Shown: positions 2,051 through 46,177, counted from the stretch's first letter. The stretch is DNA of 64,000 nucleotides from an uncultured candidatus Brocadiaceae bacterium (GCA_964612995.1 CAZTGE010000001.1:15985-79984), one strand, 5' to 3'. The notes: generated by a model not told the origin, from the sequence alone. Made by a program: numbers and translations.

Positions 2051-3318
2051 TTGACCATGCTCTCGGGCCGGCCTAGCATGAATAGTGGTTCCATGTCGTC
2101 CTCCACGCCTGCATCAGAGTCGTCAACATCCGGCGCCTGGCTCACGCTGGGGCTGATCGCCGGGCTGTTCCTCCTCGCCGCGCTCGGGCTCATCGGCCTG
2201 AGTGCATGGAGCTATGCGCGCACCAGCGCGGCCCTCCAGCACCCGCCGACGGTGTCGGAGCGACTGACCGTGCCTTGCACCCGCGACGGCGAACCCTGGC
2301 GCCTGGGCTGCTACCAGGGCGGCCCCTGGGTGGACTACCCGCTCCACCTCCACGCCGCATTGCTCGGCCTGCGCGATCGCGGCTGGCTGACCTGCAACCC
2401 GCCGACGGGGCCCGCGAGCGTCACCGCGCTGTGGGCCTGGCTCGCCGAACACGAGCGCGGACCCTACCTGCGATTCGTGCCAGCCGCCTGCTGGTCGGCC
2501 GGCTGGCGTGACGAGCAGCGGCGCACCCTGCGTCATGATTGCCTCGAACGCCTGCGCGCCGGCGAGCTCGATCTGGTGTTGGCGCTCGGCACCTGGGCCG
2601 GAGAGGACCTGGCCGTGGACGAGCACCGCACGCCGGTGGTCCTGCTTTCCGCCAGTGATCCCATCGCCGCCGGCATCGTCTCGCGCGATCCCACCGCCGA
2701 CCTGCCCCACGTCCACGCGATCCGCGATCCGGAACGCTACTACCGTCAGGCGAGCGTTTTTCACGACCTGATCGGCTTTCAGCGCCTGGGCGTGGTCTAC
2801 GACCCTTCGGCGGCGGGTCGCGTCTGGAGCAACCTGCCGGACCTCGAGCGTCTCGCCGCCGAGCGCGGCTTCGATCTTATCACCACAGCGGTGAGCGATG
2901 TCGACGCCTCGCTACCGCAGATCATCGCGTCGACCCACGACGCGTTTGCAGAGCTCGCACCCCGGGTCGACGCGGTGTGGATGGGGGCACACCAAGGCCA
3001 GAGCCCCGAGGCCCTGCCGCAGGTCATCGCCCCCCTGCTCGCAGCCCGCCTGCCCACCTGGGCCCAACAGGGGCGATGTGCGGTGGCCCAAGGGGTTCTG
3101 CTCGGCGCCGACGAGCGCAATCTGGCCCAGACCGGGCGCATCTACGCCACCGGCATCGCCGCCATGCTCAACGGGGCGGACGCGCGCCAGCTACCGCAGA
3201 TCTACATCGACCCCTGCCGCCTGGTGATCAACCATCAGGTCGCCGAACGCATCGGCTTCACCATCCCCAGCGCTCTGGCCGCGGTCGCCGACAGCCATCC
3301 GGACCCGGAGCGCCAGCA

Positions 3319-3322
<4 letters not shown>
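2051..3322 (+). CDS. periplasmic substrate-binding-like protein (ABC_sub_bind / PF04392-like), probable sensor partner of the downstream histidine kinase
   Basis: N-terminal hydrophobic anchor (WLTLGLIAGLFLLAALGLIGL). Body has the pattern of the uncharacterised ABC periplasmic component family (DLVLALGTWAG, VVLLSASDPIAAGIV). Stop overlaps the GTG start of the kinase (GTGA). True start could be ATG 2078 or 2093. Confidence 0.6.
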
Positions 3323-5559
<2,237 letters not shown>

Positions 5560-5605
5560 GCAGGTGGGACGAGTCCGACGGCCAGCAGCGCCCCGCGTGC
5601 CGTGC

Positions 5606-8338
5606 TCAGCGGCGCCGACGCAATTGGCGCAGGGCGTCGTGCAGACCGCCGCCGAGGCCCTCAGGCGGGGCAGCGGGATCCGCCTCGCTCGCTGGAACGT
5701 GCGGCGGTGGCTCGGAACCCACCGATCGCTTGGCCGGTGCCGCCGCATCCTCAGCGACCACGGAGCGCCGCCGCAGGCGCGGCTGCAGGCGCAGCCGACG
5801 CTGGAGCACCTCGCCGACCGCGCAGGCTAGGGCGAGGGCCACCAGCAAGGGGGCGAGGTCGACGGCGCGGCCAGGGCTGGGCGGGTTGGCGAAGACGTCG
5901 AGCAGATCGCTGCGCTCGTTGCCTCCGCTGAGCGTGGCGATGTTCTCGAGCACGGCGGTCCCGGGCGGCCGGCCGTAGCGCGGACGAGCCTCCGGCGAGT
6001 AGGGCAGGACCTGGGCCGCGCCGAGCAGGGCGCTGGTGCCGTCGCCCTGCGCGAGCGCGACCGAGGGCAGGACGGGGTCGCTGCCATCGAGGCGCCAGGT
6101 TGCCGCGTAGACGCCGTCCTCGACCGGAAGCATGGCGAGGGAGCGCGCCTCGCCGCCGGCGCCGACCAGGACCAGATCCGGCGCCGCCGCCGGCCAGTGC
6201 TCGCGGCGCGCGGGATCGAGCTCGAGCGTCGTGGTGACACTGCGACCGAGGCGCTGTGACCGCAGCGAACCGATGTCCGCCTCGTCGGTGCCGGCGCACC
6301 AGCGGGTGATGCCGGCGACCAGCGGCACGTAGCCGGACCAGTCGAGCAGCTCGCCGCTCTCCGTGCCGTCGACCTCCACCGCCACCGCCGCACTGCGACC
6401 GGTGCCGATGCGCCAGCTGGCCACTGCCGGACCGGGCGGGTCGCCAGGCGCGTGGACCAGGGTATCGGCGCGCGGGCGGGCGTAGATCATGTTGTAGCCC
6501 GCCACCGCGGGCCAGCTGTGCTCCCAGGCATCGTGGCGGCCGAGCACCGCGAGCAGCCGCGGGTCGGGACGCAGACGCACCGTCTCGTCGACCCAGGCGC
6601 TACGGGCGACCAGCACCGTCTCCTGGGCGAACAGCCGCGGCAGTTCGACCGCGGTGTCGGCGAAGTGACAACGCCCACCGCCGAGCTTGGCGATCTCGCG
6701 CAACAGGCCGGCATCGCTGTCGGCGGGGGTGCCAAGGCCGATGACCGAAACGGTGATTCCCGCGGCCGCGAAATCGGCGAGCAGTCTGCGGAAAGCGCCG
6801 GGCTGCTCGGCGTCGTTGGCATCGGCGAACAGGACCAGGTGGCGTGTGCCCTTGGACGAACGCAGCAGCTGCTGACCGCCGGCCTCCAGGCCGACCTCGA
6901 CGAAGATCCCGCCGCCCATGCTCTCGATCGACCGGATCATCGCCGCCGCGCTGGCCTGGTCTCTCAGCGCGCCCATGGGGATGACCAGGTGGGGGCTGGA
7001 GTCGACCGCGATCACCGCGGCATCATCGAGCGGGGAGAGCAGTTCGAGCGCGGCGACCGCGCCCGCGTTGGCGAGATCCATCTTGGTCCGCGGACCGCCG
7101 CCGACCGGCATCGCCATCGAACCCGAACGGTCGAGCACCATGGCCAGGGCGAGCGAGAGCTTGCGATGCTCGTCGCGCAACTCGAGGGTCACTGGCAACA
7201 CCGGCTCGACCGGGCTGCGGTGATAGCCGCCACTGCCGAAACTGCGCCGGCCGCCGGTGAGCACCAGCCCCCCGCCGAGGTGTTCGACCCAGGCCGCGAG
7301 CTCCTCCATGCCCCGCCGCCCCAGCGCGGAGGCGGGCACCTGTTCGAGCACCGCCACACGACAACCGAGCAGGTCGGCGAGTCCGACCCGCCCCTCGCTC
7401 ACGCAGACCACCGCCATGCCCGCGGCGCGCAGCGCGCGGGCGAGATTGCCCGGCTCGCCGGTCCCGCCCATCACCAGCACCCGCTCGCCGGGGCGCACCC
7501 GCAGCGCGGCCCGGGCGCGGTTGTTGTCGCTGCGGGCGTCATCGACGTCCTCGAGTTCAACGGTGTAGCGGGTCAGCCCGGGGCTGGTCGGGCGATCGGC
7601 GAAATCGATCACCGCCACCCGCCCGGGTTCGAGTTCGACCGACCCGGTGGCGATCTCAGTCCGTCCGCGCAGCACCCGCCAGCTCCGGGTCTCTCGCCGG
7701 TCCGAGATCAGCCGCGCGGCGCCGATGAAACTCTCGCCCAGCCTCAACAGCTCGGGCAGCTCCACGTCGACAACTGCAGCGTCGACTTCGCCGCGCCGGG
7801 GGACGCTGAGCACGTCGACCGGAATACCGCGGTACGCCAGACCGGCGGCGGCACCGCGCGGATCGCGTCCGGTGTGCTCGCCGTCGCTATGGACCACCAC
7901 CCGCCCGCTGCGGCCGCGTCCGATCAGCGAACTGGCCGCCCGCAATCCGGCCGCGAGCGCGGTGCCATCGGGGCCGACAGGCTGCTCGGTCAGGCGCACG
8001 GAGCCCTCGGCCACCGGGGCCATCGCCACCTGGGCCTGCTCGCCCACCACCACCACCGCGAGACGGTCGCCGCTTGCACGTTGGCGCGCCACCAGTTCGA
8101 CCAGCTCCTGCTGCTCGCCGCGCTCCGGGCCCATCGATCCGGAGCGGTCGAGCACCAGGACCACGTCGCTGCCGCCGCGCAGCGCGGCCGTACGCGGACC
8201 GGCTGCGGCGAGCACCAACAGCGAGAGCACTGCCGCCTCCAGCCACCGGGCCGGTCGCGTACGGCAGCACACCCACCATACCAGAGCGGCGGGCAGGGCC
8301 AGGACCAGGGCCTCGGGATAGACCAGGATGGGGATCAT
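5606..8338 (-). CDS. large membrane-anchored protein with two von Willebrand factor A domains (BatA/BatB-like)
   Basis: Two MIDAS motifs (VVLVLDRSGSMG and LAMVLDRSGSMAMP) and an N-terminal hydrophobic segment. Last gene of the MoxR/DUF58/VWA operon. Its start overlaps the stop of the upstream gene. Confidence 0.8.
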   Translation of the reverse strand: MIPILVYPEALVLALPAALVWWVCCRTRPARWLEAAVLSLLVLAAAGPRTAALRGGSDVVLVLDRSGSMGPERGEQQELVELVARQRASGDRLAVVVVGEQAQVAMAPVAEGSVRLTEQPVGPDGTALAAGLRAASSLIGRGRSGRVVVHSDGEHTGRDPRGAAAGLAYRGIPVDVLSVPRRGEVDAAVVDVELPELLRLGESFIGAARLISDRRETRSWRVLRGRTEIATGSVELEPGRVAVIDFADRPTSPGLTRYTVELEDVDDARSDNNRARAALRVRPGERVLVMGGTGEPGNLARALRAAGMAVVCVSEGRVGLADLLGCRVAVLEQVPASALGRRGMEELAAWVEHLGGGLVLTGGRRSFGSGGYHRSPVEPVLPVTLELRDEHRKLSLALAMVLDRSGSMAMPVGGGPRTKMDLANAGAVAALELLSPLDDAAVIAVDSSPHLVIPMGALRDQASAAAMIRSIESMGGGIFVEVGLEAGGQQLLRSSKGTRHLVLFADANDAEQPGAFRRLLADFAAAGITVSVIGLGTPADSDAGLLREIAKLGGGRCHFADTAVELPRLFAQETVLVARSAWVDETVRLRPDPRLLAVLGRHDAWEHSWPAVAGYNMIYARPRADTLVHAPGDPPGPAVASWRIGTGRSAAVAVEVDGTESGELLDWSGYVPLVAGITRWCAGTDEADIGSLRSQRLGRSVTTTLELDPARREHWPAAAPDLVLVGAGGEARSLAMLPVEDGVYAATWRLDGSDPVLPSVALAQGDGTSALLGAAQVLPYSPEARPRYGRPPGTAVLENIATLSGGNERSDLLDVFANPPSPGRAVDLAPLLVALALACAVGEVLQRRLRLQPRLRRRSVVAEDAAAPAKRSVGSEPPPHVPASEADPAAPPEGLGGGLHDALRQLRRRR

Positions 8339-10122
8339 CGAGCGCCCTCCTCGCGCACGAACACCACCCAGGCGGCACTCGCGGCGCCGGCGGCGAGCAA
8401 CAGCGGCAGCAGATGGGCGAAGATCCCCCGTCGGCGTTCCACCTGCGAGCGCTCGCCGAGCTCACCGCTTGGATCGGCGCGGCGGCAGTCGCTGCAGTCG
8501 GCCAGCCGCGAATCCAGACTCAGCGCCCGGACCGTGGTCCAGGGCTGATCGGGATCATGACGCAGCTCCCAGGTGCCGGCCTGTTCGAGCCCCGGCACCG
8601 TCACCCGCCGTTCGCGGTCGGCCGGCAGGACACTGCTGCTGCCATCGGGCGCGAACAGGTGCAGCCGCCGCGCCCCGCGCGGCAGGGTCAGCGAAAAGCC
8701 CTGACCCACGAGCAGGTTGCGCCGCTCGGGTCCGGGCAGACGCGAGCGGGCCAGGCGCAGGGCGTTGTCGACCAGCGCCGGCCAGACCGGGTGGCGCACC
8801 AGTCCGGAGTGTTCGAGATCGCAGTGCAGGGCGAAGCCGCGGGGCCGTTGCGAGAGCAGCACCTGCTCGCCGGCGAGCAGCAGGCTGTCGCTCGCCGCCA
8901 CCGCGTGCGCGGGGACCCCGCCCTGCCAGATGCAGCCGGTGAAGTCGAGGTCGCGCAGCAGCGGGTGCCCCCCACGCCGCAGGAAGGGGCCGACCACCGG
9001 GGCGCCGTCACCGGGAGCGAAGCGCCACACCACCGCGTCGCTCGCCGCCGGCTCTGCCGCTCCGGCGACCACCGCCAGGTCGGCGGTGGCGGGATCGCCG
9101 ACCAGTTCGGCCCCAGACGCGGCCGCGACCGCGCGGCGCAGCGGATCGCTTGCGGACTCGGGCAACGCGACGTGAACGCGGATGTCCGCACGCACCGGCG
9201 GCAGCAGCACCACCCGGTCGTCGAGCGCGAGCGGATCGTCACCGAGCAGCACCGCCTCGAGCTGCAGATGATCACCGGGTGGTATCGGCAACACCACCAG
9301 ATCGGGTGCGGCCGGATCGAGCGCGATGCGGGCGCGAGAGAGGACCGCGCCATTGGCGTCGCGCAACTCCAGCTCACGCTGACGCGGCTGACCGCCGGCG
9401 GCGAACACCCGCAGCGCCAGGCGTTCGGGGCGCTCGCCCGCGGCCGGCAGCCAGCGCGCAGCCGCGAAGCCGTCGGTGGGCACCGCCTGGCCGCGCAGCA
9501 GCAGCGCGACGTCGAGATCGGTCTGCGTGGGCGGCGCATCGCTGGCCCACAGCACCCGGCCTGCACCGCCGCTGCCGGCGAGCAGGCGCGCGGCGAGTGT
9601 GAAGGCCGGGGCCGGGTCGTGCCGTGGCGCGCGCGCCTGCCAGTCATCCAGCGCCGCGCGGGCATCGCTCGGCGGCGCCGCCGGGCCGGCGAGCACGGTT
9701 GGCGGGGTGCCGGTGAGGATCAGGCTAACGCGGTCGTCGCGCTCGAGCCGGGCGAGCTGGGCGTCGAGCGCCTCGCGCAGGCGGACAAGCGCGCTGGGCG
9801 CCTCACCCGGTGCGGTCTGCAGACGCCAGCGGGTATCGCAGACCACTACCAGATGGCGTCGGTGTTCGCGATCGGTCAGGTGTGGATCGCTCAGATACCA
9901 GGTCAGCGCCAGGACCGCGAGCAGTTCGAGCCACAGGCTCGCGCGGTTGCGGATGGACTGCCGCTGGCGCCCGGCCGCCGGATGCGGGTCCGCTCCACCC
10001 CAGAGCCAGATGGCCGAGACCGGATGCGAGCGGAAGCGACGCCGGAACAGGTGGATCGCGAGGATCGCCGGAATCGCCAGCAAGGCGAGCAGCCCCCAGG
10101 GGTTGCCGAGGATCATCGGCAT
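8335..10122 (-). CDS. BatA N-terminal-domain membrane protein (aerotolerance-regulator-like N-domain, C-terminal TM)
   Basis: N-terminus MPMILGNPWGLLALLAIPAILAIHLFRRR is the characteristic BatA_N double-TM motif. The C-terminal hydrophobic helix is LLPLLLAAGAASAAWVVFV. The expected DxSxS MIDAS appears degenerate (VVVCDTRWR). Confidence 0.7.
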   Translation of the reverse strand: MPMILGNPWGLLALLAIPAILAIHLFRRRFRSHPVSAIWLWGGADPHPAAGRQRQSIRNRASLWLELLAVLALTWYLSDPHLTDREHRRHLVVVCDTRWRLQTAPGEAPSALVRLREALDAQLARLERDDRVSLILTGTPPTVLAGPAAPPSDARAALDDWQARAPRHDPAPAFTLAARLLAGSGGAGRVLWASDAPPTQTDLDVALLLRGQAVPTDGFAAARWLPAAGERPERLALRVFAAGGQPRQRELELRDANGAVLSRARIALDPAAPDLVVLPIPPGDHLQLEAVLLGDDPLALDDRVVLLPPVRADIRVHVALPESASDPLRRAVAAASGAELVGDPATADLAVVAGAAEPAASDAVVWRFAPGDGAPVVGPFLRRGGHPLLRDLDFTGCIWQGGVPAHAVAASDSLLLAGEQVLLSQRPRGFALHCDLEHSGLVRHPVWPALVDNALRLARSRLPGPERRNLLVGQGFSLTLPRGARRLHLFAPDGSSSVLPADRERRVTVPGLEQAGTWELRHDPDQPWTTVRALSLDSRLADCSDCRRADPSGELGERSQVERRRGIFAHLLPLLLAAGAASAAWVVFVREEGAR

Positions 10123-10174
10123 CCCCCTGCGATCCGGGGACCACCGGCCGTCACGCTGCGGCTGCGTTCATGGC

Positions 10175-11035
10175 TCATCGGCCCACCTCCGGGCGTACCA
10201 GCCCACGCCGTACCAGGGCGGCGACGGCAGCCTCGAGCCCGTCCTCGGCGCGCAGGGTCACCAGGCCGATGCCACGACCGGCCAGCGCCTGTTGCCAGCC
10301 GGCCTGGTGACGGTCGAGCCGCTCGCGATAGGCGGCGATCGCTGCGGCATCGACCACCCGGTCTGCTGCCCCGCCTTCCGGATCCTCCAGGCGCAGGAGC
10401 CCGGTAACGCTGGGGTCGCGCTCTTCGCGGCTGAGCACCTGCACCAGGCAGATGCTGCCGGCTTCGGCACCGAGCCGGCGCACCACCGCGGGGCCACCCT
10501 CACGGCACAGACCATCCGAGACCAGGATCCGCTCGCCCGCCGGCGCCAGTCGCGGCGTCGGCGCGGTGGCCAGGCCGCCGGCGCCGGCACAGGGCTGATC
10601 GCCGAGCACCGGTCGCCAGTCGCCGCGACCGCCGCCGACGAGCGGTCGCCAGGCGTCTCCCGCCGCAAACAGCCGGACGCGATCGCCGGCGCGCTGCGCG
10701 AGCGTGGTGAACAGCGCCGCGAGGGTCGCGGCGAGCTCCATCTTCTGCGGGGTCAAGGCCATGCTCGCGGAGGTGTCGAGCAGAACCTCGACCCGCGGCG
10801 CAACCTCCTGGCGATAGCGCCGCAACACCAGCTGATCGCTGCGCGCGAGGACGTTCCAGTCGAGGTGACGCAGGTCGTCGCCGGGCATGTAGGCGCGATG
10901 ATCGTGGAACTCGACCGAGGCGCCCGCGCCGGCGCCGAGGCGGTCGCCGGCGCCGTGCCGCCGCCGCCGCGGATCGAGGCACAGGCACAGGGCCGCGGCC
11001 CGGGCGTCGACTGCCGTCCGGTTCCATGCCACCAT
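10175..11035 (-). CDS. DUF58-family protein (MoxR-associated), short variant
   Basis: EFHDHRAYMPGDDLRHLDWN matches the DUF58 signature (E-F-x-x-x-R-x-Y-x-PGDD-x-R-x-IDW). It sits immediately downstream of the ABC permease in the same operon. Confidence 0.75.
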   Translation of the reverse strand: MVAWNRTAVDARAAALCLCLDPRRRRHGAGDRLGAGAGASVEFHDHRAYMPGDDLRHLDWNVLARSDQLVLRRYRQEVAPRVEVLLDTSASMALTPQKMELAATLAALFTTLAQRAGDRVRLFAAGDAWRPLVGGGRGDWRPVLGDQPCAGAGGLATAPTPRLAPAGERILVSDGLCREGGPAVVRRLGAEAGSICLVQVLSREERDPSVTGLLRLEDPEGGAADRVVDAAAIAAYRERLDRHQAGWQQALAGRGIGLVTLRAEDGLEAAVAALVRRGLVRPEVGR

Positions 11036-11042
11036 CGCGACC

Positions 11043-12590
11043 TCAGCTCTCGCGCGGATTGTCGATATCGGCGTCCGCGCGCACCCGGGTGGTCTTGATC
11101 GTCATGTGTGCAAACGCAAACACGAGCTGGGCGAAGATGGCGAAACAACCGGCGAAGGAGATCAGCACGATCGCGACGTCGGCCGTAAACGCATCGATTC
11201 CGACCGCGAGCCCGTCATCGGGCAGGTACACCGGCGCGATCAGCGGATTGAAGGCGTTGAGCACGCCGAAACTGTCCTCGAAGGCCAACGCGGGGATGCT
11301 GGTGATCAGGGCCAGCGCGATGATCGTCGGCAACAACGCGCTGCGCCGCATGCCCGGCGTCTGGATCCAGCCACTGAACGGCCCGCGGCACAACCGATCT
11401 ACGGACACCAGGATGGTCATGCCGTAGGCGATCATCAGCCAGGCGCTGAGCATCAGCTCGGACCAGTCGTCATCCGTTCTGAAGAAGATGGCGACCGCAC
11501 CGACGCCGAGGCTGGCCGCCAGCAACAACAGCGCGGCGAGCGTACCGCGGGCCGCACCGGGGCCGAGGAACCAGGCGGTGGCCTTGCGCCAACCCCGAGC
11601 CTCGCGGATCCAACGCGCCTGGCGTGGCGAGAGCGGGTAGTCCTCGGTACAGGCGAAGGCGGCCAACAGCAACCCCCAGACCGTGCCGAACACAGCGTAG
11701 ACGGCGAACATCTGCGTCACCTCCCGCGCGCGCATATCCGCTAGCGCGATCAGGCCGATGCACCACGCCAGTCCGTTGCACCACACCAGCATCCACACCA
11801 GACGGGGCATGGTCGATCGGTTGTCGGCGCGGAAGGTCAGCTGAGCCGCGCTGAGGCTGAGCAACACTACCACCGCGGCCAGCCACAGGTTGGTCATGAA
11901 GCCGAGGGCGGCGATCACCCCCCAGGGCTCGACCGCGAAGCCGCGGGCCAGACCGCGCGAGACTTCCTCGAGCCCCTCGAGCCACAGCGGCCAGCCCAGG
12001 GACCACACACCGAGTACGCACAGCAGCAGGATCAGGTTGAGCCCACCGCGTCCGCTCTTGTTCGTCTGTACCGTGCCGAGAAAGACCGCGAAACAGGACA
12101 GGGCAATCCCGCCGGCGGCGAGGAGGACCAGCGCCATCAGGATCGAGAGCAGGTCGATGCCCTTGAGCAGATAGGCCATGACCAGGAAGGGGGCGACGGC
12201 GGAGAAATACAGCATGCCCTGGACCAGGCCGGCGAGCAGATAGCCGCGCAGCAACCGGCCCGGACGCATCCCGGTCAGGTCGAGCAGGTCCCAGGTGTTC
12301 TCGTCGCGCTCGCGGATCATGCTCATGTACACGCCCATCGGCTGGATCACCCACAGCGCGAAGCCGAGCACGCCGCAGAGCACGGCGAGCAGGTCGGCTC
12401 CGGCATCCTGCTCGCCGATGGCGATGGTGGCCACGAGCATCGATGCCACTCCCGCGAACAGCAGCAGGATGTTGAACACCACCAGGAAGGTGCGGTTGCG
12501 CAGTTCCTGGCGCACATAGCGGACCAACAAGGGGTTGGCACGATCAGCAAGCCACGGCAACAGCGCAGCGGTACGGGCGAGCGCCTTCAC
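11043..12590 (-). CDS. ABC-2-type transporter permease, unusually large (516 aa, at least 10 predicted TM helices)
   Basis: Inside the 839-aa track ORF, GTG at 12590 overlaps the TGA of the upstream ATPase (GTGA). The product is hydrophobic throughout, with repeated TM segments. The upstream portion of the track ORF is the antisense frame of the ATPase gene. Confidence 0.7.
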   Translation of the reverse strand: MKALARTAALLPWLADRANPLLVRYVRQELRNRTFLVVFNILLLFAGVASMLVATIAIGEQDAGADLLAVLCGVLGFALWVIQPMGVYMSMIRERDENTWDLLDLTGMRPGRLLRGYLLAGLVQGMLYFSAVAPFLVMAYLLKGIDLLSILMALVLLAAGGIALSCFAVFLGTVQTNKSGRGGLNLILLLCVLGVWSLGWPLWLEGLEEVSRGLARGFAVEPWGVIAALGFMTNLWLAAVVVLLSLSAAQLTFRADNRSTMPRLVWMLVWCNGLAWCIGLIALADMRAREVTQMFAVYAVFGTVWGLLLAAFACTEDYPLSPRQARWIREARGWRKATAWFLGPGAARGTLAALLLLAASLGVGAVAIFFRTDDDWSELMLSAWLMIAYGMTILVSVDRLCRGPFSGWIQTPGMRRSALLPTIIALALITSIPALAFEDSFGVLNAFNPLIAPVYLPDDGLAVGIDAFTADVAIVLISFAGCFAIFAQLVFAFAHMTIKTTRVRADADIDNPRES

Positions 12591-13555
12591 TGGACCTTCC
12601 CTTCGGTCAGATGCATGAACACGTCCTCGAGATTGTCGTCGCGGGTGGCGAAGTGGCAGACCGCGAGTTCGGCCGCCAGCAGGCGGCGCAGCAAGGCGGC
12701 GAGCTCGGCGTCGCCGCCGTGGTAGCGCAGCGCGATCTGCGTCTGATCGATACGGATTTCGCTGCACCCCGGCTGCTCGGCGAGGATGGCTTCGGCGCGC
12801 GGGTGCTCTTCGGCCAGGCGCAGCTCGAGCACGTGGCCGTCGCCGTCGCCGGCGGCTACCTGTTGCTGTTTCTTCTCGCGCAGCTGCTGCTTGATCTGCT
12901 TGACCTTGCCCTCGGCCACGATCCGCCCCTGCTCGATGATCGCGACTCCGTCGCACAGCGTCTCGAGCTCGGCGAGGATGTGCGAGGAGACGAACACCGC
13001 CCGGCCCTGCTGCGCAAGCACGCGCAACAGATCGCGGAACTCGATCCGCGCCCGGGGATCGAGCCCCGCGGCCGGTTCGTCGAGGATCAGCACCTGCGGG
13101 TCGTGGATGATGCAGCGCCCGAGGCACAGCCGCTGCTTCATGCCCTTCGACAGCCCGGTGACCGCCTTCTCGCGCAGGCCTTCGAGCTGGCAGAACTCCA
13201 TCACTTCGGCGACCGCCCGGCGGCGCGCGGCCGGAGCCAGACCGTGGGCGCGGGCGAAGAAATCGAGGTACTCGAACACCGTCATGTGGGGGTAGGCACC
13301 GTAATAATCGGGCATGTAGCCGATCATTCGCCGCACCGCGTCGGCGTCGTCCACCGTGCTGCGTCCGTTGACGCGGCAATCGCCAGCGCTGGGCAGGTCG
13401 AGGGTGGCGAGGATGCGCATGGTGGTCGACTTGCCGGCACCGTTGGGGCCGATGAAGCCGTAGATCTCGCCGGCCTCGATGCCGAAGCTGACGTCGTCGA
13501 CCGCGCGGATCGCGCCGAACCGGCGTTCGAGATGATCGACCTCGACCAGGCTCAC
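12587..13555 (-). CDS. ABC transporter ATP-binding protein
   Basis: Walker A GPNGAGKST, signature LSKGMKQRL, Walker B ILILDEPAAGLD, H-loop SSHIL. The start is placed at the GTG giving VSLVEVDHLERRFG (the typical N-terminus), which overlaps the stop of the upstream gene. Confidence 0.85.
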   Translation of the reverse strand: MSLVEVDHLERRFGAIRAVDDVSFGIEAGEIYGFIGPNGAGKSTTMRILATLDLPSAGDCRVNGRSTVDDADAVRRMIGYMPDYYGAYPHMTVFEYLDFFARAHGLAPAARRRAVAEVMEFCQLEGLREKAVTGLSKGMKQRLCLGRCIIHDPQVLILDEPAAGLDPRARIEFRDLLRVLAQQGRAVFVSSHILAELETLCDGVAIIEQGRIVAEGKVKQIKQQLREKKQQQVAAGDGDGHVLELRLAEEHPRAEAILAEQPGCSEIRIDQTQIALRYHGGDAELAALLRRLLAAELAVCHFATRDDNLEDVFMHLTEGKVQ

Positions 13556-15198
13556 GATGCACCTCCGATCGCCACCAGGGGCCCAGCGAGCAGATGGCGA
13601 CCGCTGGTCACGGTCTCGCCCGCCGGTCCGGGGATGTCGGCCAGCGGGCTGGCGAGCACCGCCTGGAAGAAACCGGGCTTGTTCGCCGCGCGTTGCCACG
13701 AGGCGGCGGCGCCGGGCCCGAGCCGTGCCGCACCGCCGAGCGGTCGCGGCTCGCGCGACAACGCGACCAGCTCGATGCTCGCGCCCGGTTCCACCGCGTC
13801 GCAGGCCCAGTGGCGGCCCTTAGGATCGACGTAGTGGAGCTGCTCGATCCGCGTCCCGAGGCCATTGAGCAGCGTATAGCCTCTGGCACCGGCGCTGAGC
13901 TGCAGCCGTTCGCGCGCGGCCTCGACGGTGACGTAGTGCAGACGGGCGCTGCGCCGGGTCGGCACCAGCTGCCCGCTCAACTGCTGGGACCCGTCCCAGT
14001 CGATACGCCAGCTTCTGCCGTCGTGACCGTAGCGATGGCGACGGCGGTCATCGAAGGTGCCCGGGTCGCCCGGCAGCACCGCGGTATCGAGTCCGACCGC
14101 GACCTGGCTGTGTCCGAAGGGGGCATAGTAGCTGATCCCGGTCCAGCGGACCGCACGATGTGCCGGGGCATCGAGCCAGGTGTAGGAATCGACCGTGCGC
14201 CGGGTGTGCAGCCCCTCGGAGAACAGGTTGAACACCACCAGGGCGATGCAGGTGATCAAACTGATCACCGGAATCGAGACCAACAACAGATGCCGCGCCG
14301 CGCGACGCCAGAGCAGGTACCAGAAATTCACCGGTCCGATGAGCACGATGAAGGCGAGGGCGAGAAGGATGAAACCGCCGACCGGCACCTCGCCGACGCC
14401 GGGGATCTCGATATCGCTCGCCGAATGGCGCCGGATGGTCTGTGCCGTCTGGTTGCAGGCGCGTACCCCCTCGTGGTTGGCCCCGGACCAGCTGAGGCGA
14501 CAGACCGGGATCCCGGCGCGACTCCAGGCGTCGTCCGGAGCGGTGGTGGAGGACGGACCGAAAACCGCCAGGGTCCCGCCAGCGCGGACCCAATCGCCGA
14601 GGGCCTGGCGCTGCGCTGCGCTCAGCCGCTCGCTCATCTGCTCGCCGATCACCACCACCATCCACGGCGGAAAACCCTGCCAGCGGTCGGGCAGGTCACC
14701 CGCCTCGAACTGCAACACCCGATCGCGTGCGCTGCTCCGGCCTCGACCCCAGTAGCGACGGTCGATCAACTGGGCCAGCCTGTCGCGCTGGTCCATGTCG
14801 AGCTGACCGACGAAGACGATGTCGGCGCCAGCACCGCTCGCGGTCAGATGACTCGAGCCCCGGAGCCCGGAAGCGCTGCGCCAGCTCAGCGTGACCGGCC
14901 AGAATTCTTCCATCCCCGGCGGCAGCAGCAGCGTGCGCTGATGACTGCCCGCCGGCAGATCCCACTTCGCGCTGGCGCCGCTGAAGCGCGACGTAGCCCG
15001 CACCGTGAGCTCCAGCGGCACGGCGCTGTGGATGCGCACCATCACCGGCGTGTAGCCGACCGGATCGATCCAGAGCATCCGACCTTCGATCTGCGGCCCC
15101 TGGACCTGTGGACCGGAGACCGCGGCCACAAGCTGACCCAAGCAGACAGACGACAGCAACAGCAGGCGCAGAAGCGCGGCGAGCGGCGCGGGGCTCAT
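13552..15198 (-). CDS. ABC transporter-associated membrane protein, possibly a GldG-like auxiliary component: signal peptide, about 270-aa extracytoplasmic domain, 2 TM helices, about 215-aa C-domain
   Basis: ATG at 15198 (MSPAPLAALLRLLLLSSVCLG) overlaps the moxR stop (ATGA). TM pair GGFILLALAFIVLIGPVNFWYLLW and LLLVSIPVISLITCIALVVF. The family assignment is inference from gene context (ABC ATPase and ABC-2 permease immediately downstream). Confidence 0.55.
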   Translation of the reverse strand: MSPAPLAALLRLLLLSSVCLGQLVAAVSGPQVQGPQIEGRMLWIDPVGYTPVMVRIHSAVPLELTVRATSRFSGASAKWDLPAGSHQRTLLLPPGMEEFWPVTLSWRSASGLRGSSHLTASGAGADIVFVGQLDMDQRDRLAQLIDRRYWGRGRSSARDRVLQFEAGDLPDRWQGFPPWMVVVIGEQMSERLSAAQRQALGDWVRAGGTLAVFGPSSTTAPDDAWSRAGIPVCRLSWSGANHEGVRACNQTAQTIRRHSASDIEIPGVGEVPVGGFILLALAFIVLIGPVNFWYLLWRRAARHLLLVSIPVISLITCIALVVFNLFSEGLHTRRTVDSYTWLDAPAHRAVRWTGISYYAPFGHSQVAVGLDTAVLPGDPGTFDDRRRHRYGHDGRSWRIDWDGSQQLSGQLVPTRRSARLHYVTVEAARERLQLSAGARGYTLLNGLGTRIEQLHYVDPKGRHWACDAVEPGASIELVALSREPRPLGGAARLGPGAAASWQRAANKPGFFQAVLASPLADIPGPAGETVTSGRHLLAGPLVAIGGAS

Positions 15199-16199
15199 AC
15201 CGCGAGCTCGGGGGTTTCGGCGATCAGGGTCCGGACCACGGCCGCCGCGTCGAGATCCTCGAGCCCGGCCTCGTAGCCGAGTACCAGGCGATGGGCCAGG
15301 GTCGGCACCGCCACCGCGCGTACGTCCTCGAAGCCGACCGCCGGCCGGCCAGCGAGCAGCGCCGCAGCCCGGGCGCAAGCGGCGAGGGTCAGCGCCGCGC
15401 GCGGGCTCGCGCCCCAGCGGACGTAACGGCGCACGCACTCCGGGCTGGTCTCGCGATCGGGACGGGTGGCGTCGACGAGGTGGGCGAGGTAGCGCCCCAC
15501 CGCCTCGGGCAGGGCGACCCGACGCACGGCCGCGAGCAGCTCGGCGAGTCCGGCGGCATCGGTGACCGGCTCGGGGACCGGCGCCACCCCGCTCTGACGC
15601 TGCAACACGATCTGCGCCAGCACCGAACGCTCGACGCCGGCGACCGTGACCTTCATCGCGAAACGGTCCAGCTGGGCTTCGGGCAGCGGATAGGTCCCAT
15701 CGAGCTCGATCGGGTTCTGGGTCGCGAGGACGAAGAAGGGCTCGGGCAGGCGATGGGTGGTCTCGAGCACGGTGACGCTGTGTTCCTGCATCGCCTCGAG
15801 CAGCGCCGACTGGGTCTTGGGGCTCGCGCGGTTGATCTCGTCGGCGAGCACGATCTGGGCGAAGACCGGCCCGGGGCGGAAGACCTGTTCGCGTCCGCCG
15901 TCGGGGGTCTGCTGCAACACATGGGTCCCGGTGATGTCGCCCGGCAGCAAGTCGGGGGTGAACTGGATGCGCTTGTAGTCGCAACCGCACAGGGACCCCA
16001 GAGCCTTGACCAGCTCGGTCTTGCCCAGGCCCGGCAGCCCTTCGAGCAACACGTGGCCGCCGGCGAGCATCCCGGTCAGGGTCAGGCGGGTCATCGCCTC
16101 CTGACCGAGGAGGACCTGATCCATCCCCGCGAGGATCGCGCGCGCACGCGTGCGGCAGGTCTCGACCTCGGTTTCACTGATCATCGGCATCTGCGTCAT
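15195..16199 (-). CDS. MoxR-family AAA+ ATPase
   Basis: Walker A GLPGLGKT, Walker B VLADEINRASPKTQSALLEAMQE, and the typical MoxR C-terminal helical domain. Start at MTQMPMISETE (ATG 16199) after the RBS-like GGATGA. Confidence 0.9.
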   Translation of the reverse strand: MTQMPMISETEVETCRTRARAILAGMDQVLLGQEAMTRLTLTGMLAGGHVLLEGLPGLGKTELVKALGSLCGCDYKRIQFTPDLLPGDITGTHVLQQTPDGGREQVFRPGPVFAQIVLADEINRASPKTQSALLEAMQEHSVTVLETTHRLPEPFFVLATQNPIELDGTYPLPEAQLDRFAMKVTVAGVERSVLAQIVLQRQSGVAPVPEPVTDAAGLAELLAAVRRVALPEAVGRYLAHLVDATRPDRETSPECVRRYVRWGASPRAALTLAACARAAALLAGRPAVGFEDVRAVAVPTLAHRLVLGYEAGLEDLDAAAVVRTLIAETPELAV

Positions 16200-17589
16200 C
16201 CTGTTCGCTGGCGAAGTAGCGTTGCACCGCGGCGCGGTGGCGTGGAGCGATCCGGGCCCGACGCGCATCGGCCGCTCCAGGCCCGATGTCACGCAGGCGC
16301 GCGCGTTGCAGCGCGCGGTTGGCGGCGTCGTCGAGCTCGGGCGCCCGCCGGCTCTCGGCCAGGGTCACCGAGCCGTCGGAGTTGATGCGGGCGCCGGCCG
16401 GCAGGCCTTCCAGCTCGCCGGGTTCGGTCTCCTGCTGCTGGTGGGTCAGTTCGAGCGCGGCGGCGCCGGGCCCGCGGGCGATGCCACCGCGACCCGGCTG
16501 CCCGCCAAGGCGCTGGAGCAGACGTGCGAAATCATCGCCGCGACCGAGGCCCGAGCGTTCGCCCGCAGCCGCGAGCGCGGCGCCGAGCCGTTGTGCCAGG
16601 GCCTGTTCGGCCGCCGGATCGCGCGCGCCTTGCCTCCCGCGATCGCCCTGGCCTGCGCCTGGCAGCAACCCGCGTTCGCGCAGGCGATCCAGCGCCTCGT
16701 CATCGAGCATTCCTTGCGCCGCCGCGGCGTCGAGCACGCGCGCGAGCTCGGCGTGGCCCGGCTGACCCTGTTGCGGCAGCAGACCCGGCGCCTGCCTGGC
16801 CAGCCTGGTCAGTGCCTGCGCCAGCGCCGCTGACTCGCGTTCGCGCGCAGCCGGATCGGCAGTGGCGGTGCGCCGTGCCTGCGCCAGAGCCTCAGCCAGC
16901 CGCTGCGTGCTGCGGCGCTGTTCGGCGCCGAGGCCGGCCGCGAGACGGTCCAGTCCTTCCCACACCGCCTGATCCATGCCACGCTCGTTCGCGGCCGTGG
17001 CGATCGACTCGAGCTGCTCCAACAGCTCCTGCTTGCGTTCCTGGCTCAGCACCCCCTCCTCGGCCATCTGCTCGAGCAGCTCCCGTGGCTGTGCGAGCAG
17101 TTGATCAACCCGCCCTGCGGACGAGCTGCCGGGATCGCGCTGGGGCAGCGCCACGGCGATCAGCACCGCGAGCACGGCGACCAGCACGCGGCCGCTACCG
17201 CTCCAGTCTAAGGGCGGCAGCCGGACCCGATCGAGACAAGGGCGCAGGCGTTGCAGCCAGCCCGGATCGCGCGCTGCGGGCTCCTCGTCGGCCAGGGCCA
17301 TCGCCAGACCGCGCGACTGCGCGAGTCGATCCAACCGCGCCGCCGTGATCGCATGCGGCTCCGGAGGACCGTACCACCGGCGTGACAGCAGAATCGGCGC
17401 CACCAGTCCGACCACGGGCAGCCACACCACAGTCGACGACCATCCGGGCAATGCGAGACGGATGCACACTTGCACCAGCGCGACCGCACCGAGCGACAAC
17501 GCCCAGGCCGTCAGCAACCGCCCGAGACAGCGCTGCAGCCGCTGGCGGCGATCGACCGCGCACATGAGTTGTTCGAGCCGCTGAGCCAT
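16174..17589 (-). CDS. membrane protein (three N-terminal TM helices plus a long Ala/Arg/Gln/Leu-rich predicted helical region); first gene of the operon
   Basis: ORF 16174-17589, with hydrophobic segments in the first 150 aa. Its 3' end overlaps the moxR start by 26 nt, consistent with translational coupling. No family recognised by eye. A DUF4129/DUF4350-type MoxR partner is a possibility only. Confidence 0.5.
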   Translation of the reverse strand: MAQRLEQLMCAVDRRQRLQRCLGRLLTAWALSLGAVALVQVCIRLALPGWSSTVVWLPVVGLVAPILLSRRWYGPPEPHAITAARLDRLAQSRGLAMALADEEPAARDPGWLQRLRPCLDRVRLPPLDWSGSGRVLVAVLAVLIAVALPQRDPGSSSAGRVDQLLAQPRELLEQMAEEGVLSQERKQELLEQLESIATAANERGMDQAVWEGLDRLAAGLGAEQRRSTQRLAEALAQARRTATADPAARERESAALAQALTRLARQAPGLLPQQGQPGHAELARVLDAAAAQGMLDDEALDRLRERGLLPGAGQGDRGRQGARDPAAEQALAQRLGAALAAAGERSGLGRGDDFARLLQRLGGQPGRGGIARGPGAAALELTHQQQETEPGELEGLPAGARINSDGSVTLAESRRAPELDDAANRALQRARLRDIGPGAADARRARIAPRHRAAVQRYFASEQDDADADDQ

Positions 17590-17719
17590 TCTCGGATCCC
17601 ATCAGGTGCCGTACGGCGGCAGCATATACCACCGGGGACGTATGATCCAGGCACAGCCATCAGCGAGGGCTTCACCCCCGTCAATCGAAGGAGGTGCATC
17701 GCCAGCACGCGCTGCTATC

Positions 17720-18028
17720 ATGTGCCACATGGCTACGCGATCGACCTGCCTGCTCGTGGAAACCGAATTCCGCACCCTGCTCGAGGCCTTGCACGGCTAC
17801 CTGCTGCGTGATCGCTCTGCCGAGGATCCGGCAGCCTGCGAGGAGTGCGTACAGGGCCTCGATCGGCCTCAGTGCGAGGCACTCCATCGGCGCCTGCAGC
17901 GCTTGCATGCCGATTGTCGGTTGTTGTTGCAGGATATGCACACCCTGGAGGACGCGAGCGATACGCCGGCCAGCGATCCGGCGTTCGAACACGCCGGCGG
18001 GGCCTCTACTCCCCGAACTTCTCTTTGA
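17720..18028 (+). CDS. possible small Cys-rich hypothetical protein
   Basis: Starts at ATG 17720 inside ORF 17606-18028. It is convergent with the ACP-like gene and overlaps it by 23 nt. No recognisable family, and high GC makes chance ORFs likely. Confidence 0.2.
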   Translation: MCHMATRSTCLLVETEFRTLLEALHGYLLRDRSAEDPAACEECVQGLDRPQCEALHRRLQRLHADCRLLLQDMHTLEDASDTPASDPAFEHAGGASTPRTSL

Positions 18029-18287
18029 TCCGCCCGTCGATGAAGTCGATGGCCTCGCCGATGGTCTTCATACCCTCATCGCCGGGCAGGACCTCGTCGA
18101 AATTGATGCTGAAGGCGTCTTCGAGGTCCATGGTGATCTCGGCGATGTCGAGATGGTTGTCAGTGATCGCCGGGACCAGCTCCTGGTGCTCGTAGTCGTA
18201 ATCCGGATCTTCGCCCGGCAGAGGCAGGTTGTGCAGTTTGTTGCACAACAGCTCGATGACTTCTTCGGAAATCCGTTTGCGATCCAT
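18006..18287 (-). CDS. acyl carrier protein paralog lacking the phosphopantetheine-attachment serine (DNH-LDIAEI in place of DS-LDIAEI)
   Basis: Hand translation of the reverse complement gives PAITDNHLDIAEITMDLEDAFSINFDEV. Helix II (LDIAEIxMDLEDAF) is 14/15 identical to the acpP product at 19591-19839. The codon before L is CAT (His), which is not one substitution away from any Ser codon. ATG start, 93 aa. Confidence 0.7.
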   Translation of the reverse strand: MDRKRISEEVIELLCNKLHNLPLPGEDPDYDYEHQELVPAITDNHLDIAEITMDLEDAFSINFDEVLPGDEGMKTIGEAIDFIDGRIKEKFGE

Positions 18288-18347
18288 CGCCGGGTGCTCG
18301 ATATCGTTGCAGGGGGCGGGGGCGGCCGAAGCCGCGCAAGGCGCGGT

Positions 18348-19598
18348 TCAGCCGGTGAAGCGTTTGAATACCACGCAGGCGTTGTGCCCACCGAACCCCA
18401 GGTTGTTGGAGAGGCCGTAGTCGACTTGAAGCTCACGGGCCTCGTTGGGGATGTAATCCAGATCGCACTCCGGATCCGGGGTGGTGTAATTGGCGGTCGG
18501 CGGCAACACGCCATCGCGCAGGGCGCAGATGGTGGCGATGGCCTCGATCCCGCCAGCGGCACCGAGCGCATGCCCGGTCACGCCCTTGGTGCTGCTCACG
18601 GGCAGCGCGCGGGCGTGGTCGCCGAAGACCTTCTTGATGATCAGGGTCTCGGTCTTGTCATTCGGCGGGGTCGAGGTGCCGTGCGCGTTGAGATAACCGA
18701 GCTGCTCCGGCGCGATACCGGCGTCGGCCAGCGCGGCGCGCATGCAGGCTGCGCCCGAGATGCCCTCGGTGTCCGGCGCGGTCTCGTGGAAGGCATCGCC
18801 GTTGCAGGCGGCTCCGACCACTTCGCCGTAGATCGTGGCTCCGCGTTTGCGCGCATGCTCGAACTCCTCGAGCACCAGCACCCCCGCGCCCTCGGCCATG
18901 ACGAAGCCGTCACGGTCGCGGTCGAAGGGCCGACTGGCGGTCTCGGGCGAGTCGTTGCGCTTGGACAGTGCGCCGATGCTGTTGAAGCCGGCGAAGCCGA
19001 GATGGCTGATCGGGGCTTCGGCACCACCGCAGATCATCACGTCGCACTGGCCCGACCGGATATGGTTGAGCGCGGCGCCGATGGAGTGGGAACCGGTGGC
19101 GCAAGCGGTGGTGATACTGTAGTTGGGGCCCTTGGCGCCGTAGACGATCGAGATGTCGCCAGCAGCGCTGTCGACGATCATCTTGGGCACCAGGAAGGCG
19201 CTGACCCGGCGGGGGCCCTTTTCGACGAAGGCGGCGTGTTCCAGCTCGATGGTGCGCAGCCCGCCGATGCCGGAGCCGACCACCACCCCGATCCGGAACG
19301 GATCGGGGAGGGAGCCTTTCTCCAGCCCGGCCATGGCCATGGCCTCGGCTGCGGCCTTGATCGCCAGCAGGCTGTAACGGTCCTTGCGGCGCGCGCCACG
19401 TCGATCGCCGTCGGTCAGTTCGACGTCCTCGAGGTCGACCTCGCCGCAGAACTTGGTCGCGTGCTGTTCGGCATCGATCCGGGTGGTCGGGCCGATGCCC
19501 CCCCGCCCGGCGGTGGTCGCGGACCAGAAGGCATCGACACCGATGCCGTTGGCCGCGAGCACACCCATGCCGGTGACGACGACGCGTCGATCAGCCAT
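18348..19598 (-). CDS. fabF: beta-ketoacyl-[ACP] synthase II
   Basis: Full-length KAS II pattern: active-site TACATGSHSIG, catalytic His motifs NAHGTSTPPNDKTE and GVTGHALGAAGG, C-terminal NLGFGGHNACVVFK. Confidence 0.95.
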   Translation of the reverse strand: MADRRVVVTGMGVLAANGIGVDAFWSATTAGRGGIGPTTRIDAEQHATKFCGEVDLEDVELTDGDRRGARRKDRYSLLAIKAAAEAMAMAGLEKGSLPDPFRIGVVVGSGIGGLRTIELEHAAFVEKGPRRVSAFLVPKMIVDSAAGDISIVYGAKGPNYSITTACATGSHSIGAALNHIRSGQCDVMICGGAEAPISHLGFAGFNSIGALSKRNDSPETASRPFDRDRDGFVMAEGAGVLVLEEFEHARKRGATIYGEVVGAACNGDAFHETAPDTEGISGAACMRAALADAGIAPEQLGYLNAHGTSTPPNDKTETLIIKKVFGDHARALPVSSTKGVTGHALGAAGGIEAIATICALRDGVLPPTANYTTPDPECDLDYIPNEARELQVDYGLSNNLGFGGHNACVVFKRFTG

Positions 19599-19839
19599 TG
19601 CTCTCCGCGACCTTCTGCTCGATGAACTTGATGATGTCGCCGACGGTCTGGGGACCCTCAGCGTTGTCGTCCTCGAGCTTGACGCCGAAAGCGTCTTCCA
19701 GGTCCATCATGATCTCGGCGATGTCGAGCGAATCGGCACCGAGGTCGGCGATCACGTTGCTCTCCGGTTTGACCGCGTCCTTCTCTTTGTCGAGACGCTC
19801 GGCGATGATGTCGATGACCTTGTCTGCGATGTCGCTCAC
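19591..19839 (-). CDS. acpP: acyl carrier protein
   Basis: Canonical LGADSLDIAEIMMDLEDAFGV with the phosphopantetheine Ser. GTG start preceded by GGAGCAGCC. 82 aa. Confidence 0.9.
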   Translation of the reverse strand: MSDIADKVIDIIAERLDKEKDAVKPESNVIADLGADSLDIAEIMMDLEDAFGVKLEDDNAEGPQTVGDIIKFIEQKVAESNG

Positions 19840-44160: not shown

Positions 44161-44179
44161 CGCCGGCCCTCCCGACCGC

Positions 44180-44264
44180 CGGAAACGCCAGCACAGCTGG
44201 CGAGCGACGACAGAGGACGAGGGGGTGAAGTGACGAAGGAGCGAGGGGGCAGAGCCCCCCCTGC
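44180..44264. repeat. divergent copy of repeat family A (GCCGGAAACGCCAGCACAGCTGGCGAGCGACGA...GAGGGGGCAGAGCCCCC hairpin)
   Basis: Shares the CGCCAGC-CAGCTGGCGAG-GAC block and the terminal G5C/GC5 hairpin with 38706-38817. Confidence 0.45.
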
Positions 44265-44278
44265 AAAAAAGTCCCCCG

Positions 44279-45990: not shown

Positions 45991-46177
45991 CGCGACAGAG
46001 TGTAGGCCCCGCTCCCGGAGGCGACAAGGCCACAATGCCCGGCGCTGGGCAAGACCGGGCTCTCACCCACCTCCCGGGCCCGGCGCGAGCAGCGCTTGAA
46101 CCCCGCCGCAGCGGCGCGCATGGTCACCCGGGCGAGGTGGCCGATCGCCGCCTCCGCAGCCCGACAAGGAGCCGACC

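Follow-up and report, generated by a model that had tools for sequence, protein, structure and literature searches.

A cluster of eight genes, here g1 to g8, was identified on the minus strand at positions 5606 to 17589 of a 64,000-nucleotide (nt) stretch of DNA (the window) from an uncultured candidatus Brocadiaceae bacterium (GCA_964612995.1, CAZTGE010000001.1:15985-79984). The cluster is a MoxR-DUF58-VWA system with an integrated type-V ATP-binding cassette (ABC) module and two unannotated membrane-protein families. In order, it encodes a membrane protein (g1), a MoxR-type ATPase (g2), an accessory membrane protein (g3), an ABC ATPase (g4), a permease (g5), a DUF58 protein (g6), and two VWA proteins (g7 and g8). 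Judging from the sequences and by analogy with characterized systems, we give roughly even odds (about 0.5) that the eight products assemble into a single self-contained machine of the inner membrane and periplasm, driven by two motors in the cytoplasm. The initial annotation of this DNA did not recognize the architecture as described, and in full-text literature searches likewise no account was found of an ABC-2 system embedded in a MoxR/DUF58/VWA set; the cassette is apparently undescribed.

Eight open reading frames (ORFs), all on the minus strand, fill 5606 to 17589, and their boundaries are identical in the public annotation of the same contig (a Planctomycetota metagenome-assembled genome, or MAG; GCA_048617035.1), which lists products of 471, 329, 548, 322, 515, 286, 595, and 910 amino acids (aa) for g1 to g8. 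The initial annotation had placed eight codirectional genes at these positions, with sizes of 549 and 516 aa for g3 and g5 that are in fact 548 and 515 aa. The GC content of the window is approximately 0.65 to 0.75; chance ORFs in GC-rich DNA were ruled out because homologs of every product are conserved elsewhere in the same order. Overlaps, initially claimed for all junctions, were found at five of the seven. They measure 4 nt at g2/g3 (ATGA), g3/g4 (GTGA), g4/g5 (GTGA), and g7/g8 (ATGA), while g1 and g2 overlap by 26 nt, as had been claimed, if MoxR starts at the ATG at 16199, or by 11 nt from the ATG at 16184 (the public call). Gaps of 7 nt and 52 nt separate g5 from g6 and g6 from g7, respectively. 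From this layout we infer a single transcript. The unit can be bounded as g1 to g8 because a divergent 99-aa ORF (17729 to 18028, plus strand, in the public gene calls) lies upstream of g1 and a convergent kinase gene downstream of g8, and because no flanking genes are conserved. The presumed promoter region occupies 17590 to 17728 (minus strand), between g1 and the divergent ORF; an Rfam scan upstream of g1 gave no match, and no sigma-70-like consensus sites were found in 5000 to 18500, which covers the cluster and its upstream region. Nine terminator-like stems were counted in the same interval, against 2.9 expected; these were mostly short (5 to 7 bp) and inside coding sequence, and were discounted as operon breaks.

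Using the permease alignment to scan one genome per species, 53 loci were recovered, and their six-frame ORFs were searched with the eight proteins by phmmer and then jackhmmer to assign gene coordinates. The full g1-to-g8 order was found in Myxococcota (L018), Planctomycetota (L028 and L031), Vicinamibacterales of the Acidobacteriota (L049), Anaerolineales of the Chloroflexota (L051 and L055), and Gemmataceae (L054 and L057), with junctions mostly overlapping by 1 to 4 nt. Loci L019, L020, L027 (Kuenenia), and L056 follow this order as far as their contigs extend. The order is therefore present in at least four phyla, Planctomycetota (including Brocadiaceae/Kuenenia and Gemmataceae), Myxococcota, Acidobacteriota, and Chloroflexota. 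A marine metagenome contig whose g3 is only 27% identical also retains the order MoxR-g3-ABC-g5-DUF58. In every linked homolog MoxR and DUF58 are separated by g3 to g5, and this linked ABC trio always lies in the same slot, its junctions overlapping by 1 to 4 nt or abutting in most loci, which argues against separate transcription of the trio. The DUF58 gene follows g5 in nearly all loci with downstream sequence, usually directly, even where MoxR, g3, and g4 are absent from the locus; in L010, L043, and L064 a second g5 copy stands between the two. No recurrent flanking families were found in these loci except histidine kinases in a few close relatives. The gene-neighborhood search suggested alongside the initial annotation thus found the interleaved order in four phyla, and the proposed functional link between the ABC trio and the MoxR-DUF58-VWA set gains comparative support both from this recurrence and from congruent groups in the gene trees.

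Trees of g2, g4, g5, g6, and g8 recovered the same major groups, including the window with Myxococcota and Anaerolineales with Gemmataceae, and because these shared groups extend across phyla, the set appears to move as a block. In the g5 tree, full or near-full clusters occur on all deep branches, while the stand-alone trios group with the orphan permeases in a single nested clade, whose neighbors are g3-to-g8 and g1-to-g5 loci. Repeated insertion of an unrelated ABC system is disfavored by the g5 tree and by the congruence of the gene trees. Pairwise distances of MoxR and the ABC genes are correlated (rho, 0.76 to 0.84; not corrected for species phylogeny). On our reading, these data point to an old association that has been passed on as a cassette, both by inheritance and by lateral transfer, and has split secondarily. 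Separately, the Chloroflexota cassettes (L051, L055, and L056) were observed to group with those of Gemmataceae/Planctomycetia (L050, L052, and L057) in the MoxR, ABC ATPase, permease, and DUF58 trees, and with L057/L050 and not L052 in the g8 tree, suggesting whole-cassette transfer between phyla or mis-binned MAG contigs.

Several points weigh against a single machine. The g2-to-g6 segment occurs without g7 and g8 (L009, L013, and L064), g5 to g8 occur without g2 to g4 (L012, L022, L024, L025, L026, and L062), g3 to g8 occur without MoxR (L037 and L063), and g3 to g5 occur by themselves in metagenomes and in Pirellulales, among them cultured Lacipirellula limnantheis. As sub-modules are found apart, the parts are able to function, or at any rate to survive, on their own. 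In the g5-to-g8 loci no ATPase gene lies upstream, that position being taken by pyrG in L025 and L062 and by a divergent gene in L012. Further variants comprise g1 to g6 in Myxococcales, g3 to g6 in Lentisphaerota, and g5 as an orphan in some Planctomycetaceae. The locus sample was seeded on g5 and hence yields no fraction of MoxR sets that carry ABC genes, taxon labels were assigned by the MAG submitters, the gene trees are rough neighbor-joining trees, and the distance correlations partly mirror species relatedness. Membrane topologies derive from hydropathy and the positive-inside rule only, and the homology between domains of g3 and g8 is moderate (hhalign probability, 76%; E value, 2e-5, with g3 residues 47 to 219 aligned to g8 residues 205 to 367, the segment after the first VWA domain).

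These splits bear directly on the possibility that the cluster combines two systems independent of each other, a Bat-like MoxR/DUF58/VWA set and an ABC-2 exporter plus accessory protein, which are only co-located and co-regulated and have no contact, whether physical or mechanistic. Many genomes have the ABC trio by itself, the accessory family is very large, with best-scoring members of a longer, 700- to 780-aa form like the stand-alone homologs, and MoxR-DUF58-VWA sets without ABC genes are common (PMC3495828). We nevertheless regard independence as unlikely. In four phyla the trio sits in a fixed MoxR/DUF58 slot with overlapping or abutting junctions, all components give congruent major clades, some of them cross-phylum, and in split loci the permease stays with DUF58/VWA and not with its own ATPase. 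In addition, by the alignment given above, g3 and g8 appear to share a periplasmic module. The separate, commonly co-located ABC system that the initial annotation had weighed against its own proposal is thus seen only insofar as the trio also occurs alone.

Profile searches bore out the assignments first made for a MoxR AAA+ ATPase as the second gene, an ABC ATPase as the fourth, a short DUF58 protein, a BatA_N protein with a degenerate metal ion-dependent adhesion site (MIDAS), and a 910-aa double-VWA protein. The MoxR-type ATPase g2 (15195 to 16199; this and all other cluster genes on the minus strand) has 334 aa, or 329 aa from the ATG at 16184. It scores above threshold with AAA_3 (1.7e-60; 203 bits against a gathering score of 27) and AAA_lid_2 (3e-17; 62.5 bits against 22.7), and its Walker A (GLPGLGKT, fitting GxPGxGKT) and Walker B (LADEINR) motifs are intact and invariant or near-invariant across 22 aligned homologs. 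By these sequence features, g2 is a canonical MoxR ATPase. Its VWA-type partners in the cluster are g6, g7, and g8, none of which adjoins it. In characterized MoxR systems (NorQ/NorD, RavA/ViaA, and CbbQ/CbbO), the VWA protein is an adaptor to the client. The soluble, VWA-like DUF58 protein g6 (10175 to 11035; 286 aa) matches PF01882 over model positions 1 to 214 of 216 (8e-23; 81.2 bits against a gathering score of 23.4), has no hydrophobic segment by hydropathy, and retains the DxSxS motif, which is also kept in the aligned homologs; by analogy, g6 is presumed to be the cytoplasmic adaptor for MoxR.

The ABC ATPase g4 (12587 to 13555; 322 aa) is of the DrrA/GldA/NodI (ABC-2) type. It matches ABC_tran (4.8e-30; 105 bits), weakly DrrA1-3_C, the drrA model TIGR01188 (4e-72; 243 bits, under the subfamily cutoff of 312), and the GldA model TIGR03522 (4e-68; 230 bits, under the cutoff of 402.6), falling below every equivalog cutoff. 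The Walker A, signature, and Walker B (xxxDEP) motifs are conserved across 39 homologs; the signature reads LSKGM, not the canonical LSGGQ, in 37 of the 39 g4-family sequences from the loci. Its partner g5 (11043 to 12590; 515 aa) scored 23.9 bits with ABC2_membrane_3, below the gathering score of 31.6. An AlphaFold model of g5, built on 32 homologs (structure prediction drew on aligned proteins from the searches), is confident (predicted local distance difference test score, or pLDDT, 86.3). It contains 12 transmembrane (TM) helices and, using Foldseek, was found to have the type-V transmembrane fold. On this model g5 is a fused, pseudo-dimeric ABC-2-fold permease, a reading based on the 12 TM helices and on half-length fold matches, and one that explains its unusual size. 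The ABC-2 permease of the initial annotation therefore stands as regards the modeled fold, with the sequence profile remaining sub-threshold. Internal duplication was not detectable within the g5 sequence (hhalign E value, 0.09), the two halves having diverged past sequence recognition, and profile searches of g3 and g5 against PDB sequences returned nothing useful.

That g4/g5 acts as an exporter is likewise inferred from sequence; no substrate or biosynthetic genes lie in or beside the cluster. A defense role was rejected, as defense-system models (PADLOC) gave generic ABC-ATPase similarity only. In some Planctomycetota, the 12-TM permease was observed as two diverged copies in tandem, preceding DUF58 and following the ABC ATPase or the cluster start (L010, 3808 to 7088; L043, 9980 to 13113; L064, 10001 to 13281). 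The mycobacterial ABC-2 efflux pump Rv1217c-Rv1218c also has a fused double permease, but it has no accessory protein or MoxR/VWA partners, and identity is only approximately 14 to 17%.

The accessory membrane protein g3 (13552 to 15198; 548 aa) was assigned from its structure model (pLDDT, 81.5; predicted template modeling score, 0.81) and a weak DUF4350 signal. The model comprises an N-terminal helix, a beta-sandwich (residues 36 to 130), a flavodoxin/GATase1-like alpha/beta domain (135 to 258), a TM hairpin (273 to 298 and 304 to 328) joined by the short basic loop RRAARH, and a beta-rich C-terminal domain of approximately 210 aa (333 to 540); both soluble parts are predicted to be periplasmic. 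DUF4350 scored 21.9 bits, against a gathering score of 30.4, and was weakly matched in 10 of 21 g3-family members (best, 8.7e-5). The structure prediction proposed with the initial annotation thus yielded a soluble N-domain, a TM hairpin, and a beta-rich C-domain. Of the GldG-like protein described there, the two soluble parts around two TM segments hold, but the likeness to GldG is weak, as none of the 21 members matched ABC_transp_aux or GldG. Using an exhaustive search, 6,310 representatives at 50% identity were found for the g3 family at an E value of ≤1e-3, and 2,132 at ≤1e-30, making it a large and unannotated family; a word-indexed search undercounted it, giving 4 relatives, or 10 with a 21-sequence profile.

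Two rival readings turn on g3 and the ABC module. In one, the cluster would be homologous to GldA/GldF/GldG, the ABC transporter of gliding motility, and would have a role in adhesin secretion or surface motility. Both systems have an ABC-2-type ATPase, a permease, and a large periplasmic accessory protein with a GATase1/flavodoxin-like domain, g4 reaches 230 bits on the GldA model, and the weak DUF4350 signal of g3 is GldG related, a tie between DUF4350 and GldG being made in PMC5898192. However, the GldA score is far under its cutoff, g5 gives no GldF match, and none of the three proteins passes the Gld equivalog models; the accessory protein differs in architecture, there is no type IX secretion system (T9SS) context, and the cluster occurs in phyla not known to have T9SS gliding. 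A Gld homolog was rejected on these grounds and is very improbable. In the other reading, the ABC-2 motor (compare NosFY-NosD) and MoxR/VWA proteins (compare NorQ/NorD and CoxD/CoxE) would together load a metal center or cofactor into a periplasmic enzyme encoded elsewhere. NosDFY is an ABC-2 machine that drives a periplasmic partner in N2O-reductase maturation. However, no candidate target enzyme was found in or beside the cluster, whose flanks are not conserved, the g3 model shows a beta-sandwich and a flavodoxin-like domain and no NosD-like beta-helix, and the likeness to NosY is that of the general type-V fold, common to ABCG, PmtD, and CcmB. The permease is, moreover, a fused 12-TM protein and not a NosY homodimer, MoxR/DUF58/VWA genes are present, and no nos genes occur in the cluster or its flanks. 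Identity with NosDFY was thus rejected, and metalloprotein maturation in general is improbable.

The first gene product, g1 (16174 to 17589; 471 aa), was examined by hydropathy and an alignment of 14 homologs. It has three TM segments (approximately 25 to 43, 51 to 69, and 130 to 148), as initially described, followed by a long helical/low-complexity C-terminal region that is predicted to be periplasmic, with a conserved cytoplasmic loop motif (LDR..GGL) and a conserved C-terminal motif (PRHR..V.RYF). For all 14 aligned homologs the gene precedes that for MoxR, and in most loci the two abut. No Pfam or NCBIfam model matched g1 or 13 homologs, leaving an early suggestion of DUF4129 unsupported.

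The two VWA proteins have predicted membrane anchors. A BatA_N double-TM anchor, a VWA-like domain, and a C-terminal TM segment make up g7 (8335 to 10122; 595 aa), which matches BatA_N (2.7e-9; 37.7 bits against 25.9) and TIGR02226; its MIDAS equivalent is degenerate (CDTRWR), as it is in most homologs and lineages. The longer g8 (5606 to 8338; 910 aa) has an N-terminal TM hairpin, a VWA domain with a MIDAS, a beta-sandwich plus GATase1-like module, a second VWA domain with a MIDAS, a GATase1_like domain, a C-terminal TM segment, and an Arg-rich tail (VWA_2, 2.9e-20; VWA, 2.6e-14; GATase1_like, 6e-7). Both of its MIDAS motifs (DRSGS, at residues 64 and 403) are intact and kept in nearly all of 18 homologs, and it has no BatA_N profile match. 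Profile comparison by hhalign (probability, 98.7%) indicates that g7 and g8 are paralogs. A second g7/g8-like pair was observed 4 kb upstream on the same strand (21638 to 25700), with no MoxR or DUF58 gene beside it. One member is a 616-aa BatA_N protein (23850 to 25700; PF07584, 2.8e-17; g7 profile, 2e-20), and the other, overlapping it, is a 740-aa protein (21638 to 23860) with no Pfam match and a hit to the g8 family profile (3e-28); the pair may use the MoxR and DUF58 proteins of the operon.

The presence of MoxR, DUF58, BatA_N, and membrane-anchored VWA proteins raises the possibility of an ortholog of the Bacteroides/Leptospira/Borrelia Bat aerotolerance operon, acting in oxidative-stress tolerance, with an accessory transporter added. 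Like the cluster, the Bat operons of Bacteroides fragilis, Leptospira, and Borrelia (bb0170 to bb0176) and Rhizobium leguminosarum RL3499 to RL3502 combine an AAA_3 MoxR with DUF58, a BatA_N double-TM anchor, and periplasm-facing VWA/MIDAS domains, and an envelope role is likely common to all. In contrast to them, the cluster has three ABC-system genes between MoxR and DUF58, which are therefore not adjacent, VWA proteins with GATase1-like modules and C-terminal anchors, and the additional stalk protein g1. None of the eight products matched the TPR or SH3 (BatC/BatE) or BatD families, and features of BatA and BatB are split here, BatA_N lying in g7 with a degenerate MIDAS and the intact MIDAS motifs in g8. 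For the lack of TPR and BatD matches and the nonadjacency of MoxR and DUF58, the cluster was rejected as a Bat operon; orthology, with a Bat function itself unresolved (PMC5700661), is improbable. A title cited in that paper reports an effect of the RL3499-to-RL3502 MoxR/DUF58/membrane-protein operon on cell morphology and envelope integrity.

Two further MoxR-vWA systems were compared. An archaeal DUF4350-MoxR-vWA set has been predicted to be a secretion or membrane-remodeling complex (Makarova et al. 2015, PMC5898192). This arCOG01314 system shares with the cluster a membrane-anchored extracytoplasmic flavodoxin/GATase1-like protein encoded with MoxR and vWA and a preponderance of membrane or extracytoplasmic components. 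However, its DUF4350 protein combines a signal peptide with one C-terminal TM segment, whereas in g3 a TM hairpin is followed by an additional beta domain at the C terminus, and the DUF4350 match is sub-threshold. The archaeal set also includes S-layer/Ig-like proteins and has no ABC ATPase or permease, and the cluster was rejected as a member on account of its ABC components. The MoxR-vWA-YebA/TgpA operon (Zhang & Aravind 2012, PMC3495828) resembles the cluster in combining MoxR and DUF58/vWA with a polytopic membrane partner encoded next to the vWA gene; in the cluster, however, that partner is an ABC-2 permease and not a transglutaminase-like (TGL) peptidase, and no protease domain was detected among the products.

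Returning to a single machine with two motors, the following arrangement is proposed. The cytoplasmic parts would be the MoxR hexamer, DUF58, the ABC nucleotide-binding domains, and short conserved loops, with the bulk of g1, g3, g7, and g8 predicted to be periplasmic. This agrees with experiments on BB0173, a BatA-type protein of the inner membrane whose VWA domain was shown to be periplasmic (PMC5700661). Two copies of g4 would sit on a single pseudo-dimeric g5, as Rv1218c on Rv1217c, with g3 (three TM segments) as the periplasmic accessory of the transporter, comparable to NosD for NosY or GldG for GldF. The DUF58 protein would dock the MoxR hexamer onto the membrane complex, as in NorD/NorQ, ViaA/RavA, and CbbO/CbbQ; given the position of g6 after g5, usually directly, in almost all loci with downstream sequence, MoxR probably docks at g5 or else at cytoplasmic loops of g1, g7, or g8. 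The proteins g7 and g8, anchored at both ends, would expose their VWA (MIDAS), beta-sandwich, and GATase1-like modules to the periplasm. As g3 carries a related beta-sandwich plus GATase1-like module, g3, g7, and g8 probably pack together as a scaffold above the permease, to which g1 would add a long helical stalk.

The usual substrates of type-V ABC systems are lipids, polymers linked to lipids, or amphipathic peptides; alternatively, as NosDFY does, such systems power a partner in the periplasm. By hydrolyzing ATP, the ABC module could extrude a hydrophobic or polymeric envelope component or only transmit force, the MIDAS-bearing scaffold would receive whatever is extruded or moved, and MoxR/DUF58 would assemble, reset, or gate the complex. 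The fullest version of this proposal, an undescribed dual-motor envelope machine in which a MoxR hexamer, acting via DUF58, and a type-V ABC motor share a platform, load or remodel a periplasmic VWA/GATase1-like scaffold, and move between phyla as an eight-gene cassette, is offered tentatively, as something we think could well be wrong. The physiological role of the cluster is probably envelope maintenance or biogenesis. To our knowledge, Chloroflexota have no conventional outer membrane, so the cassettes found there argue against an obligatory outer-membrane partner and would restrict the possible functions to those that need no such membrane.

Few bacterial gene sets that lack a known mechanism are as widespread as MoxR-DUF58-VWA operons, and the phenotypes linked to them so far (aerotolerance, envelope integrity, and stress tolerance) are vague. 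An ABC-2 transporter set lying between MoxR and its DUF58 adaptor is a candidate client for the chaperone, and the cluster suggests that this family works on membrane transport or envelope assembly. If the dual-motor machine exists, it would provide the first concrete membrane client for the enigmatic MoxR-DUF58-BatA (Bat) systems and hence a testable function. Three families with little or no annotation were also brought to light, the g1 stalk, the g3 accessory protein (more than 6,000 clusters at 50% identity), and the fused 12-TM g5, all common in Planctomycetota, a phylum of debated envelope biology.

The gene convergent with g8 encodes a hybrid PAS histidine kinase/response regulator (2977 to 5559, plus strand). 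Histidine kinase genes, the only recurrent flanking family, also adjoin the cluster in L009, L012, L013, and L031 (Planctomycetota), and this adjacency could reflect regulatory linkage or just shared ancestry. Upstream of the cluster, 18006 to 19839 (minus strand) carries fabF and a gene for an acyl carrier protein (ACP; PP-binding); after these comes a 93-aa ORF that looks ACP-like by sequence, apparently lacks the phosphopantetheine-attachment serine, and has no Pfam match in the public record. The gene at 25854 to 28754 (plus strand), divergent from the second BatA_N pair, encodes a Ser/Thr protein kinase of 966 aa that has a CBM_4_9 carbohydrate-binding domain at its C terminus. Another ABC ATPase gene was identified at 45034 to 46035 (minus strand; ABC_tran, 3.6e-28; g4 profile, 7e-60), followed by two ORFs without Pfam matches (42925 to 45341); together these genes may constitute a second, uncharacterized ABC-2-type system.

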